From Escherichia phage vB_EcoM-Sa45lw, in the sequence record MK977694.1: a stretch of DNA of 64,000 nucleotides; one strand, written 5' to 3'. The notes under the pieces are model-generated. The model saw nothing but the letters and a program-made list of their open reading frames with translations. It did no database searches and had not been told where the DNA came from. Both the position numbers and the translations under genes were made by a program. Positions 5,613 to 64,000 of this stretch are shown in pieces. Every line of letters begins with the position of its first letter. Within the stretch, counting starts at the first letter, position 1.

Positions 5613-7124
5613 ATGACTGACATTAAAGTACATTTTTATGATTTTAGTCACGTGAGAATTGATTGTGAAGAAAGTACATTTCATGAACTCCGTGATTTCT
5701 TTAGCTTTGAAGCTGATGGGTATCGTTTTAATCCGAAATACAAATATGGCCACTGGGATGGACGAATCCGTCTTTTAGATTATAATCGTCTTCTTCCATT
5801 CGGCTTAGTCGGGCAAATTAAAAAGTTCTGTGATAACTTTGGCTATAAAGCCTGGATTGACCCACAAATTAACGAAAAAGAAGAATTATCAAGAAAAGAT
5901 TTTGATGAATGGCTTTCTAAATTAGAAATCTATTCAGGAAATAAAAGAATTGAACCACACTGGTATCAAAAAGATGCAGTGTTCGAAGGATTAGTTAATC
6001 GTCGTAGAATTCTTAATCTTCCAACATCCGCTGGTAAATCGTTAATTCAAGCTTTACTCGCTCGGTATTATTTGGAAAATTACGAAGGTAAAATTCTTAT
6101 CATTGTTCCAACAACTGCTCTAACAACTCAGATGGCTGATGACTTCGTTGACTATCGTTTATTCAGTCATGCAATGATAAAGAAAATTGGTGGCGGAGCA
6201 TCAAAAGATGATAAATATAAAAATGACGCACCAGTCGTTGTTGGTACATGGCAAACTGTAGTTAAACAACCGAAAGAATGGTTCTCACAGTTTGGAATGA
6301 TGATGAATGATGAATGCCATCTTGCTACAGGAAAAAGTATTTCATCTATCATATCAGGTTTAAATAACTGTATGTTTAAATTTGGTCTATCAGGTTCATT
6401 ACGTGATGGCAAAGCCAATATCATGCAGTATGTTGGAATGTTCGGTGAAATATTTAAGCCAGTAACGACTTCTAAATTAATGGAAGATGGACAAGTAACT
6501 GAGCTAAAAATTAATAGTATTTTTCTTCGCTATCCCGATGAGTTCACTACTAAATTAAAGGGAAAAACTTATCAAGAAGAAATAAAAATTATTACTGGGC
6601 TTAGTAAAAGAAATAAATGGATCGCTAAATTAGCTATTAAGCTTGCGCAAAAAGATGAAAACGCTTTTGTCATGTTTAAACATGTATCACATGGTAAAGC
6701 TATTTTCGATTTAATTAAAAATGAATACGATAAAGTTTATTACGTATCAGGGGAAGTTGATACCGAAACCCGCAATATAATGAAAACCTTAGCTGAAAAT
6801 GGTAAAGGAATAATTATAGTAGCTAGTTATGGTGTATTTTCTACTGGTATTTCAGTTAAAAATCTGCACCACGTTGTTTTAGCACACGGTGTTAAATCAA
6901 AAATCATTGTATTACAAACAATCGGTCGTGTATTACGTAAGCATGGTTCTAAGACAATAGCAACAGTCTGGGACCTCATAGATGATTGTGGTGTTAAGCC
7001 AAAATCTGCTAATACGAAAAAGAAATATGTTCATTTGAACTATCTTTTAAAACACGGCATTGATCGTATTCAGCGCTACGCAGATGAAAAATTTAATTAC
7101 GTAATGAAAACAGTTAATTTATAA
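5613..7124 (+). CDS. uvsW: UvsW DNA/RNA helicase
   Basis: 503 aa; Walker A LPTSAGKS, DECH box; N-terminus MTDIKVHFYDFSH matches T4 UvsW. Confidence 0.95.
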   Translation: MTDIKVHFYDFSHVRIDCEESTFHELRDFFSFEADGYRFNPKYKYGHWDGRIRLLDYNRLLPFGLVGQIKKFCDNFGYKAWIDPQINEKEELSRKDFDEWLSKLEIYSGNKRIEPHWYQKDAVFEGLVNRRRILNLPTSAGKSLIQALLARYYLENYEGKILIIVPTTALTTQMADDFVDYRLFSHAMIKKIGGGASKDDKYKNDAPVVVGTWQTVVKQPKEWFSQFGMMMNDECHLATGKSISSIISGLNNCMFKFGLSGSLRDGKANIMQYVGMFGEIFKPVTTSKLMEDGQVTELKINSIFLRYPDEFTTKLKGKTYQEEIKIITGLSKRNKWIAKLAIKLAQKDENAFVMFKHVSHGKAIFDLIKNEYDKVYYVSGEVDTETRNIMKTLAENGKGIIIVASYGVFSTGISVKNLHHVVLAHGVKSKIIVLQTIGRVLRKHGSKTIATVWDLIDDCGVKPKSANTKKKYVHLNYLLKHGIDRIQRYADEKFNYVMKTVNL

Positions 7125-7149
7125 GGGCTTCGGCCCTTTGGAGAAAAAG

Positions 7150-61300: not shown

Positions 61301-61414
61301 TCACATAAATCCAAAGTAAACGTTTAATACATCAATCATTAAAACGATTGGGAATATACTCAAAACTATTAGTATTATAACTACATTCCATATAGCTTTA
61401 ACAATCTTTTTCAT
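61301..61414 (-). CDS. Small membrane protein
   Basis: 37 aa MKKIVKAIWNVVIILIVLSIFPIVLMIDV...; strong SD GGAGG; early promoter upstream. Confidence 0.5.
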   Translation of the reverse strand: MKKIVKAIWNVVIILIVLSIFPIVLMIDVLNVYFGFM

Positions 61415-61442
61415 TTTCTGTTCCTCCGTAGTTGATAGTTGT

Positions 61443-61472
61443 ATAATACCACAGAGGAACAGTCTTGTAAAC
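61443..61472 (-). promoter_or_regulatory. Early promoter (GTTTACA, 17 bp, TATTAT)
   Basis: Same architecture and flanking ACAACTATCAAC as the other cassettes. Confidence 0.5.
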
Positions 61473-61689
61473 AACTTTTTTAAAAATATTCGTAATAAAT
61501 GTGAATACCAACTACTACCGCTGAAACCTGTGCAACCCACCACGCACAAGCAATAAGTACAGAATTAAAAATTTTCATAATAACCTCATCACAAAAGTAA
61601 ATGTTAAACAAATTAATGGAATACTAATTAACCAAACAAAACACCACCATAATGAACTCATAGTTCAATCTCAACGATTTTCATTTTAC

Positions 61690-61896
61690 TCAATAATCCG
61701 CTAAAAGATCGACGATTGCATCACGAAGACACTTATTCGCAATACGTTTAAGAGCAATTTCAGTTTCTGGAGCATTTTGAATAATCATTGAATTCAATTC
61801 AGCCTCAGCAAACTGAAGTTCTTTAACTAATTCAGCTTTATATTTTCCTTGCCCTTTCTTAGCTTTTGCTCGTTTTAATTCAGCTGTAGTAAACAT
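61690..61896 (-). CDS. Hypothetical basic protein
   Basis: 68 aa from MFTTAELKRAKAKKGQG with GGAGA SD. Confidence 0.5.
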   Translation of the reverse strand: MFTTAELKRAKAKKGQGKYKAELVKELQFAEAELNSMIIQNAPETEIALKRIANKCLRDAIVDLLADY

Positions 61897-61930
61897 TTTA
61901 TTCTCCAAATCCGTATCAGTTGATAGTTGT

Positions 61931-61960
61931 ATATTACCACAGTCCTTGTGGTATGTAAAC
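61931..61960 (-). promoter_or_regulatory. Early promoter (GTTTACA, 17 bp, TAATAT)
   Basis: Hexamers on - strand. Confidence 0.5.
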
Positions 61961-61976
61961 CGTTTTGTGAAAATTT

Positions 61977-62534
61977 TTAAATGGAAAGATACCATCCGTT
62001 GTAGTTGCTTTTTCTTACAACCTTACGAAGGTCTTCTCTGTCACCGATGAACTTCGGAGTGTACTGGATGACACCTGGATGAATTTCTTTAGTGTTGAAT
62101 ATAATTATACAGTCAGCGACTTGATGATTTAGAATAGGCCCTAGATTTATTCCAGAACCATATGGATACTCTCCGCTGCATCCCGTTGTTACCGAAATCC
62201 AACGCGAGTCAGTTTGATGTGTCTTAACTTCTACACGAAGCCCGCAGTATCTTGGATGCGCCAATACATCCCATGCGTATGTATACGGGTCATTAACGTC
62301 CTCTTGGCCTTTGTTAACATACCCGCTTAGCCAATCTGCTACAAAAAACTCTGCGTACACCGCGATACGGCATCTTTCGATAACTTCTGCTTTATCCTGG
62401 TTCGGGTTTTGTTTTAAAGAGTATCTTGCTGTATCAGCAATTTTGACCTTCATTTCACTAGTCAAATCACTGTTCGATAGGGTAAATGTCGGAATCTGAA
62501 ATAGTCTCTGTAAACCCGGATTCGTTTTCTGCAT
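61977..62534 (-). CDS. denB: Endonuclease IV
   Basis: 185 aa, T4 DenB length and position. Confidence 0.9.
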   Translation of the reverse strand: MQKTNPGLQRLFQIPTFTLSNSDLTSEMKVKIADTARYSLKQNPNQDKAEVIERCRIAVYAEFFVADWLSGYVNKGQEDVNDPYTYAWDVLAHPRYCGLRVEVKTHQTDSRWISVTTGCSGEYPYGSGINLGPILNHQVADCIIIFNTKEIHPGVIQYTPKFIGDREDLRKVVRKSNYNGWYLSI

Positions 62535-62796
62535 TTAGACTTTCCTTTTTACCGCTGAGATAAGCGTTATATACTTTAAGAGTGCCGTAATAAATTCGGT
62601 CATTTTCATCTAAAGACTCACGGTCAAGTTCATCGAGTTCCTTTTTATCCATGACTATAACATCATTGCAATAAAGAAACCCAAGTTTTTTGTGTCCAAA
62701 CTCAAATTTATTACAGTACACAATATTAGCGTGATGATTACCATGTAGAGAAATTTCTTTTATGTCGGAATCACCGATATTCATACAATAAATCAT
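62467..62796 (-). CDS. Hypothetical protein
   Basis: 109 aa ORF; its 3' end overlaps the denB 5' end by 68 nt. Confidence 0.4.
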   Translation of the reverse strand: MIYCMNIGDSDIKEISLHGNHHANIVYCNKFEFGHKKLGFLYCNDVIVMDKKELDELDRESLDENDRIYYGTLKVYNAYLSGKKESLNAENESGFTETISDSDIYPIEQ

Positions 62797-62813
62797 AATT
62801 CACCTTAAAACAA

Positions 62814-62843
62814 AAGGGCCGAAGCCCTTATTTAAATTGTTCA
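62814..62843 (-). repeat. 30 bp repeat (last codons EQFK + stop + terminator hairpin), copy 1
   Basis: Identical to 63037-63066. Confidence 0.9.
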
Positions 62844-63022
62844 ATTCTTTTCTCTAAACAATCTGCATAAGATTTCATTGAGATAAACTGTGAAAGCAGT
62901 AATTCTTGCTCAACTGCACTAACCGTTAGAAACTTTGCGCTTTCTAAAAATTTGCTCAGTGCATTAATTTTGAGCATTAATTGATCGTATTCTTCTTTTA
63001 CTCGTGCTTGATAACCTAACAT
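62828..63022 (-). CDS. Hypothetical protein
   Basis: 64 aa ORF ending ...IEQFK. Confidence 0.5.
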   Translation of the reverse strand: MLGYQARVKEEYDQLMLKINALSKFLESAKFLTVSAVEQELLLSQFISMKSYADCLEKRIEQFK

Positions 63023-63036
63023 AATTTTCCTTAGTT

Positions 63037-63066
63037 AAGGGCCGAAGCCCTTATTTAAATTGTTCA
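63037..63066 (-). repeat. 30 bp repeat, copy 2 (3' end of rIIB + terminator)
   Basis: Identical to 62814-62843. Confidence 0.9.
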
Positions 63067-63989
63067 GTAACGTCTTCAATTACTTCGTATTGGCAGGTAC
63101 GCATTTTAGCGTCGTTGTAATCAATCGGAATTGATACTACATCACGAGGATGAACTTTAACTTTTACAACTCGGCTGGTTGAACCACCGAAGTGACGAAT
63201 ATAAGATTTAGAACACACATGCAGACCACGAGAACAAGTTTGTGTATCATCGTCATTCACACGAGTACGCGGCATTTTAACTACTTTACCAGGACTGTTA
63301 TCAAAGGTATTTGAGTGACAGTCAAAGTAATTGCTGCGAACTACTTTCCAAGCATAGAAGTAACCATCTTCTGTAATTTCAATATCGTTTGCTACCAAGA
63401 AATCAAAAAGTCGAGATACCGCTTTCTGGCTTGGGTTTTCCAGCAGATTTTCCAAGAACGGAAAATAAAATTCAAAGTTTTCGCCTTTTTCCATCGAATC
63501 AAGAATACGATCAACCAAACCAGACCGCAATTCAATATTTTGATAGAATAAGCTTCCACCTTCAATTCGAACATCGCCGGAAATATATTTTTCAACAGCG
63601 CGACGAACATTAATTTTTTGTGCCGCTTCTTCCAGCTTATCCGCTACAAGCAGATTGAGAATTTCCTGGAAGTTTGAATGAGTATTAGGTGTTGCATTAT
63701 AAGTTACACCATCGACAGTAATCGAAATGAATTTTTTAGATGCATTCCAAATAATGTCAGATTTAGTAACTGGAGCAATAACTGCATCGCTATTAACTTT
63801 AACTGTAATATCACCGCTAATAGTAACTTTAGAGCGTTTAGCTTCTTCAGCATTTTTCAAAACACGACGGATTGTATCAACCGATACACCTTGCCAATCA
63901 GCCAATTCCTGCTGAGTATAATTACCGCTTGAATACAGTTTAACAATTTCAGCTTGTTCGTTTTTGGTCAGGCATTTAATATTGTACAT
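63051..63989 (-). CDS. rIIB: rIIB membrane-associated protein
   Basis: 312 aa; MYNIKCLTKNEQAEIVKLYSSGNYTQQELAD matches T4 rIIB. Confidence 0.95.
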   Translation of the reverse strand: MYNIKCLTKNEQAEIVKLYSSGNYTQQELADWQGVSVDTIRRVLKNAEEAKRSKVTISGDITVKVNSDAVIAPVTKSDIIWNASKKFISITVDGVTYNATPNTHSNFQEILNLLVADKLEEAAQKINVRRAVEKYISGDVRIEGGSLFYQNIELRSGLVDRILDSMEKGENFEFYFPFLENLLENPSQKAVSRLFDFLVANDIEITEDGYFYAWKVVRSNYFDCHSNTFDNSPGKVVKMPRTRVNDDDTQTCSRGLHVCSKSYIRHFGGSTSRVVKVKVHPRDVVSIPIDYNDAKMRTCQYEVIEDVTEQFK

Positions 63990-64000
63990 AATTTTCCTTA

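Follow-up and report, generated by a model that had tools for sequence, protein, structure and literature searches.

Homologous recombination is frequent among T-even phages, and their genomes are mosaic. Tuerk et al. reportedly described in 1988 the C(UUCG)G tetraloop hairpins that lie between the cistrons of phage T4, and Ripley and co-workers, and Singer et al. in 1982, are said to have found templated changes between nearby repeats in the T4 rII region. The discovery of CUUCGG hairpins was made in T4 mRNA (PMC4371310). T4-type phages also carry PeSLs, cassettes consisting of a repeated promoter and stem-loop (Arbiol et al. 2010, PMC2839356; Comeau et al. 2014, PMC4122927). Through recombination between PeSLs, small ORFs are lost or gained and mini-circles arise (PMC2839356; PMC4122927), and about half of 13 T4 deletion mutants of Mosig et al. 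have been adduced beside such PeSL-mediated ORF loss. A search of the literature on denB.1, crAss001_48 and the rIIB terminator returned nothing specific to the locus described here, which carries a 30-bp direct repeat at the ends of two adjacent genes.

The window, i.e. the whole 64-kb stretch of Escherichia phage vB_EcoM-Sa45lw (MK977694.1) that was analysed, belongs to a Tequatrovirus (T4-like phage) and is 99.9% identical to vB-Eco-KMB42 in this region. The repeat region shows 99% identity to wV7 and matches 520 phage records, nearly all of them T4-like. All genes at the repeat locus lie on the minus strand (Table 1). The 312-aa protein is the RIIB lysis inhibitor (PHROG 609, E=1e-111), corresponding to T4 rIIB, and the 64-aa ORF that follows is T4 denB.1 (NC_000866 167743-167937), located between rIIB and denB as in T4. 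Its 64-aa product matches Pfam PF21825 (crAss001_48-related protein) from residue 4 to residue 61, with E=3.9e-19 and 68.8 bits (cut-off 24.8), and is a direct orthologue of T4 DenB.1, 95% identical and in the same position, from which it differs by Glu61 in place of Ala61 and by the absence of a spacer between stop codon and hairpin. The next gene is the DUF7418 ORF, which is followed by denB. By tblastn, denB.1 was detected in 652 phage records, and the gene order rIIB, denB.1, an ORF of approximately 100 aa (DUF7418) and denB is kept in four other genera, namely Dhakavirus (JS98, Bp7), Kanagawavirus (PEi20, Kosakonia 305), Winklervirus (X20) and Marfavirus (VAC36). Judged from these comparisons of sequence and position, the 64-aa ORF is denB.1, and neither an orphan nor a chimera.

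Table 1. Positions of the features at the rIIB-denB.1 locus and of a third stop-plus-hairpin copy elsewhere in the window.
Feature	Position	Strand	Remarks
rIIB (312 aa, ends ...EDVTEQFK + TAA)	63051..63989	(-)	ORF list, PHROG 609, T4 match
Repeat copy 1 (rIIB end)	63037..63066	(-)	codons 63054-63065, stop 63051-63053
Copy 1 hairpin GGGCUUCGGCCC	63039-63050	(-)	followed by UU
denB.1 ribosome-binding site and start TAAGGAAAATTATGT	63019..63033	(-)	identical to rIIB site at 63986-64000
denB.1 (64 aa, rare ...EKRIEQFK allele)	62828..63022	(-)	T4 match and Pfam PF21825
Repeat copy 2 (denB.1 end)	62814..62843	(-)	codons 62831-62842, stop 62828-62830
Copy 2 hairpin	62816-62827	(-)	followed by first UU of U-tract
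U-tract UUUUGUUUU after denB.1 hairpin	62805..62815	(-)	terminator-like with hairpin
DUF7418 ORF (109 aa)	62467..62796	(-)	Pfam PF24193, E=4e-37; gene after repeat copy 2
Long denB ORF (185 aa, as annotated in T4)	61977-62534	(-)	overlaps DUF7418 ORF by 68 nt
Third exact TAA+GGGCTTCGGCCC+TT (17-mer)	7122..7138	(+)	ends unrelated 503-aa ORF (5613-7124)

The 30-mer AAGGGCCGAAGCCCTTATTTAAATTGTTCA occurs in two exact copies in the window, 223 bp apart, the rIIB copy being the upstream one. No further copies were found in the window with up to three mismatches allowed. None of 100 dinucleotide-preserving shuffles contained a match to the 30-mer, which rules out a chance origin, and an assembly artefact is likewise ruled out, since the exact allele is common to six independently sequenced phages. 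On the minus (coding) strand each copy reads T GAA CAA TTT AAA TAA GGGCTTCGGCCC TT, and thus comprises four terminal codons (EQFK), a stop codon and the C(UUCG)G hairpin GGGC-UUCG-GCCC. The first-pass annotation had described precisely this duplication, with the same tail, stop and hairpin ending both rIIB and the 64-aa ORF, and the ORF list and the sequence bear it out. It had also regarded the two proteins as unrelated, which is borne out by BLASTP, where RIIB and DenB.1 gave no alignment over any part of their length; this lack of homology still does not rescue the idea of a gene fusion that it had put forward (see below). The two genes have a second exact match in common, the 15-nt ribosome-binding site and start sequence (two matches compared to 0.36 expected). 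Taken together with the 30-bp repeat, denB.1 shares both initiation and gene-end sequence with rIIB, and on this sequence basis a shared translational (RegA-type) control of the two genes is possible.

A large part of the repeat belongs to a structure that is common in this genome. C(UUCG)G hairpins whose stem has five pairs or more number 13 in the window and are nearly always intergenic; the CTTCGG hexamer is found 17 times on one strand and 15 times on the other, where approximately 7 are expected for each. Since the CUUCGG hairpin is recurrent, 16 of the 30 repeat bases represent a recurrent motif. Moreover, the third exact copy of the 17-mer, at the end of an unrelated gene, marks the stop codon plus hairpin as a generic gene-end module in this genome. 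The GGGCUUCGGCCC hairpin is found at both 3' ends, those of rIIB and denB.1, in essentially all Tequatroviruses sampled. Both copies have the UUCG loop, the C-G closing pair and the G+C-rich stem of the T4 C(UUCG)G intercistronic hairpins, as well as the same site directly after stop codons between early genes, and they likewise belong to a hairpin type with many copies per genome. Nothing essential differs from the T4 hairpins; what is particular here is that the adjacent rIIB and denB.1 copies have an additional 14 nt of upstream coding sequence in common.

The predicted minimum free energies of the two hairpins are similar, -10.9 kcal/mol for the rIIB copy and -11.1 kcal/mol for the denB.1 copy, and in the predicted fold of the rIIB copy the stop codon lies inside a 7-bp stem. 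The denB.1 hairpin is followed by a U-tract and gives a minus-strand terminator-like match at 62829-62814, and a terminator was annotated at this hairpin by the depositors of phage G2133. The rIIB copy has neither a U-tract nor a minus-strand terminator-like match; the sequence after it is UUAACUAAGG, and the copy runs directly into the denB.1 ribosome-binding site UUAACUAAGGAAAAUUAUG. Going by these sequence features, the denB.1 copy is the only plausible intrinsic terminator of the two, so that the earlier description of a duplicated terminator applies to the hairpin, which is present in both copies, but not to the U-tract, which follows the denB.1 copy only. At the RNA level, the hairpins would serve as stable 3' ends, either protecting the mRNA or attenuating transcription. 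No Rfam family was found at E<=1 in 61500-64000, and one chance match was obtained elsewhere. In the T4 reference NC_000866 both hairpins (GGCTTCGGCCC and GGGCTTCGGCC, at 2725-2745 and 2953-2966 of the extracted T4 locus L001) are one base shorter than in other Tequatrovirus records, and in KJ477684, also a T4 record, the 30-mer is exact at rIIB. The short hairpins in NC_000866 may be old sequencing compression errors.

The C-terminal tails were compared across genera, using for DenB.1 an alignment of eight sequences from five genera (Tequatro-, Dhaka-, Kanagawa-, Winkler- and Marfavirus). R59, I60 and F63 of DenB.1 were invariant in all eight, giving an R-I-x-x-F end that reads RI(A/E)QFK in Tequatrovirus, RISYFGE in JS98 and Bp7, RIARF in PEi20 and Kosakonia, RISNFDF in X20 and RIQRF in VAC36, while position 61 can be E, A, S or Q in the family. 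At the end of RIIB, a conserved EDVTE-x-F precedes a tail that varies: TEQFK in the window, TEQFANEYKY in JS98, TELFAE in RB69, TEKFTSEIRGYSY in PEi20 and TEAFKAGTL in X20. Of the five other genera in the RIIB alignment, four keep the TE-x-F tail, and VAC36 has TARW. In T4, T2 and T6, denB.1 encodes AQFK and has a spacer before the CUUCGG hairpin; the T4 end, GCA CAA TTC AAG TAA aataaa GGGCTTCGGCC, encodes AQFK with codons that differ from those in the window. As most Tequatroviruses, including T4, T2 and T6, have -AQFK followed by the stop codon and hairpin, both the tail and the hairpin predate the exact repeat. From the aligned tails we conclude that "QF" is native to each protein and that nothing was transplanted.

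These comparisons cover the checks proposed in the first-pass annotation. The corresponding interval of T4 and its relatives does contain denB.1 in the same position, but with -AQFK, stop and hairpin already present in T4, T2 and T6, and a form of the 64-aa ORF free of the R-I-x-x-F end did not emerge, R59, I60 and F63 being invariant in all eight sequences, as expected for a tail that is not foreign. Very probably, judging from the sequences at hand, the locus combines native tails, a generic hairpin and a rare three-change allele of denB.1, and no fusion took place.

The three changes became apparent when both 3' ends were extracted from 24 Tequatrovirus sequences. These were taken from GenBank phage records, as a protein-pattern survey of IMG/VR returned 5 loci, too few for a census. 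The rIIB end was almost invariant among the 24 sequences (GAA CAA TTT AAA TAA GGGCTTCGGCCC) and was present as an exact 30-nt match in many records; approximately 200 records had a best match of at least 99% identity, the sampled rows of this count being the rIIB copy. The common Tequatrovirus denB.1 end, on the other hand, is GCA CAA TTC AAA TAA aataa GGGC. Half of the denB.1 ends (12/24) were spacer alleles, in which GCA CAA TTC AA(A/G) TAA is followed by a 4-6-nt spacer (aataa, aataaa, ataa or aaga); these include T4, T2, RB18, wV7, CAM-21 and ime09. The remaining 12 had no spacer, and among them all four combinations of two SNPs were seen: GCA/TTC in EC.W14-2, GCA/TTT in ECML-363, ZCEC15, YwIITB1 and EPIMAM01, GAA/TTC in SHFML-26 and BCPEco_001, and GAA/TTT in the window, G2133, PaulHMueller, Sf23 and JoYop. 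The exact 30-mer arises from the GAA/TTT allele only. This allele is rare, with perfect matches to a 52-nt allele-specific query in 7 records (6 phages), and no-spacer alleles of any kind were found in approximately 25 of 429 matching records in the whole phage collection.

Compared to the common allele, the window carries GCA>GAA (Ala61Glu; 62841, T instead of G on the plus strand) and the synonymous TTC>TTT (62834, A instead of G on the plus strand), and lacks the 5-nt AATAA spacer at 62827. All three changes are toward the rIIB copy 223 bp upstream and fall within 15 bp. Among the outgroups, GCA is found in PEi20 and Kosakonia, and TTC in JS98, Bp7, PEi20, Kosakonia and X20, which identifies GAA and TTT as the derived states. 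The same outgroup codons contradict the idea that the A-type alleles represent decay of an rIIB-derived tail. TTT was present on 9/12 and GAA on 7/12 of the no-spacer alleles, and both on 0/12 of the spacer alleles. In the 24 sequences the derived ends occur on at least four denB.1 body haplotypes, each with an ancestral-type twin; in the pairs EPIMAM01/ime09 and ECML-363/CAM-21, for example, the denB.1 bodies (codons 1-60) are identical and the 3' ends different. Similarly, wV7 and the window differ at 12 sites in 61941-64000, with the three events located within 62827-62841. No general co-variation of the two ends was seen in the 24 sequences, and phages with UUUG-loop rIIB hairpins keep UUCG after denB.1. 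In the IMG/VR contig L005, the rIIB tail has TTC for TTT, as in its own denB.1 copy, which could be due to conversion in the reverse direction or to a simple transition.

The repeat represents two ordinary T4 gene-end modules, each a stop codon plus C(UUCG)G hairpin, behind adjacent, unrelated and independently conserved early genes, and the likeliest explanation for the rare allele is that the three denB.1 changes were copied from the rIIB end. The copying would have been an ectopic gene conversion over a short tract, or a template switch, with nucleation at the hairpin that both ends share and at the CAATT..AA.TAA microhomology; the converted tract, anchored on this hairpin, would not exceed 20 nt, and tracts of variable length would give the intermediate alleles. 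At 62827-62841 the changes are indeed clustered, each equals the nearby donor and their polarity is derived, the pattern by which conversion is recognized. They resemble the cases of templated mutagenesis or conversion in T4 rII in this clustering (within 15 bp) and in being directed toward a nearby imperfect repeat, although those cases were laboratory mutations, whereas here the event is deduced from natural allele variation. As to an excess over independent mutation plus linkage, derived ends do occur on several body haplotypes, but in a sample of 24 sequences, with a 5-nt loss that is prone to slippage and with mosaic T-even genomes. It should also be noted that, at the sequence level, GCA>GAA is the one change that matches the donor specifically, TTC>TTT being a synonymous transition, that the GAA/TTC allele needs either a discontinuous tract or a TTC-bearing donor, and that homologous recombination, together with tight linkage, could move one derived patch across backgrounds and so mimic a recurrent origin. 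For the statement as a whole, that native ends and generic hairpins were brought to exact identity by a three-change allele from templated conversion, the sequence evidence leaves the chances about even. As to the recombination footprint that the first-pass annotation saw in the repeat, the fusion of a tail is the part that falls away, and a short conversion tract is compatible with the three changes toward rIIB.

A broader version of this reading would treat the stop plus CUUCGG modules as promoter-less counterparts of PeSLs, that is, as portable homology patches that can serve for conversion as well as deletion. The graded denB.1 alleles would then be tracts copied from rIIB, with loss of the spacer, then TTT and then GAA reflecting different tract lengths, and the Mosigvirus arrangement would be a deletion product. 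In Mosigvirus RB69, denB.1 is absent, and what comes after the rIIB stop codon (tail TELFAE) is a single GGGGACUUCGGUCCCC / GGGGACTTCGGTCCCC hairpin, then a U-tract and finally the DUF7418 ORF (1230-1380 of the RB69 locus L024). Going by sequence, this arrangement is suggestive of an old, stem-loop-mediated loss of denB.1; it is a single observation. Like PeSLs, the gene-end modules are short stem-loops that recur between genes in an early region of high plasticity, and they flank a small non-essential ORF; they have the same potential as substrates for homologous exchange, and in one genus (Mosigvirus, RB69) the flanked ORF is missing. In contrast to PeSLs, there is no sigma-70-like promoter, the repeat reaches into coding sequence, the flanked denB.1 is widely conserved rather than an ORFan, and no deletion or insertion polymorphism was found in Tequatrovirus among the best matches from 457 records. 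We put this broader version forward tentatively, as somewhat less than an even prospect.

The same three changes may have arisen as independent small mutations without any templating, i.e. by slippage, a transversion and a transition, in which case the identity to rIIB would be coincidental. The common allele caaAAATAAAATAAggg is a perfect 5-nt tandem (AAATA-AAATA), in which one slip gives exactly TAA+GGGC, and apart from the spacer the two ends were already identical at 28/30 positions. The four SNP combinations on the no-spacer background are what stepwise change predicts, position 61 of DenB.1 is variable in the family, so that a change there is probably neutral, and rIIB itself shows a TTT/TTC polymorphism in contig L005. 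Coincidence is nevertheless strained by the agreement of all three derived states (3/3) with the copy 223 bp away, by the confinement of TTT and GAA to no-spacer alleles and by the recurrence of the derived ends on several body haplotypes with ancestral-type twins, as described above. Independent mutation is therefore a serious but doubtful contender for the origin of the allele.

It is improbable that denB.1 is itself a stem-loop-bounded mobile cassette of the PeSL type, in which the repeats would be recombination sites giving a 223-bp circle or deletion and their identity would reflect a recent insertion or exchange. The direct stem-loop repeats do flank a single small ORF, RB69 has the architecture that a hairpin-to-hairpin deletion predicts, and ORF loss, ORF gain and mini-circles have been documented in T4-type phages. 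However, no promoter-like match was found on the minus strand of the 28- and 31-nt intergenic spacers, which are filled by the hairpin and the ribosome-binding site, and PeSL membership was rejected because the promoter component (sigma-70-like) is absent. Furthermore, denB.1 keeps its position in five genera and was detected in 652 records, and in three of the four other denB.1-carrying genera sampled it is not followed by a hairpin. A synthetic rIIB-to-DUF7418 junction query, by which a denB.1 deletion in Tequatrovirus was sought, gave only two-piece matches of approximately 333-340 nt among the best matches from 457 records, showing that denB.1 is still present between rIIB and the DUF7418 ORF in these.

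Selection for a stop codon buried in the stem (UAAGGGC...GCCCUUA), a form that might be the best one for termination, translational coupling or stability of the mRNA 3' end and on which denB.1 would have converged, is very unlikely. TAA+GGGCUUCGGCCC+UU without a spacer does end three unrelated genes in the window and the rIIB form is strongly conserved, but the great majority of Tequatroviruses keep a 4-6-nt denB.1 spacer, and selection on the hairpin leaves Ala>Glu and TTC>TTT, both upstream of the stop, unexplained. Least credible of all is the chimeric gene of the first-pass annotation, with illegitimate or terminator-mediated recombination placing the rIIB tail and terminator on an unrelated ORF: the exact identity does run through coding sequence, stop and hairpin of two otherwise unrelated proteins, but DenB.1 is a full-length PF21825 domain protein (to residue 61 of 64), the RIxxF end is invariant in distant genera that lack an rIIB-like nucleotide tail, T4, T2 and T6 have AQFK in different codons and a spacer before the hairpin, and the alleles differ by one amino acid.

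The repeat is thus real, and its reading as a fusion footprint is wrong. It is made up of a T4 RNA hairpin of a well-known type and of two native tails, and the one slightly new aspect is the natural series of alleles, in which hairpin-anchored micro-conversion may be recorded. The finding matters little beyond housekeeping and is a minor curiosity at the level of alleles. If conversion is the true cause, the locus would offer a small natural example of hairpin-anchored, very-short-tract homogenisation of adjacent T-even gene ends, and the allele series and near-isogenic pairs (wV7 versus KMB42 or Sf23) are ready for an experimental test. In phages with this allele, a 223-bp denB.1 deletion or mini-circle would moreover be expected at low frequency from the exact 30-bp repeat.

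Further observations concern the region downstream of the repeat. The DUF7418 ORF is conserved across Tevenvirinae genera and largely deleted in T4 and T2; T4, T2, RB18 and EP01 have lost an in-frame internal part of it, between the short direct repeats TAAAAGAAA / TAAAAAGGAAAG. The T4 remnant is approximately 37 aa long (MIYMNIGDSDIKESLNAEN...YPIEQ), unannotated and located at about 2662-2745 of the T4 locus. In relatives that keep the DUF7418 ORF, denB is annotated with 477 nt, starting at window position 62453 (MKVKIADTARY...), and from the sequence the N-terminal extension of T4 denB may be an annotation artefact of the DUF7418 deletion. Finally, a 61-nt direct repeat with 70% identity, containing GTTGATAGTTGTATA(A/T)TACCACAG, is found at 61394-61454 and 61882-61942, where it adjoins promoter-like sites in the hyperplastic ndd-denB region; it is possibly a promoter-proximal repeat of the PeSL kind that flanks small ORFs.
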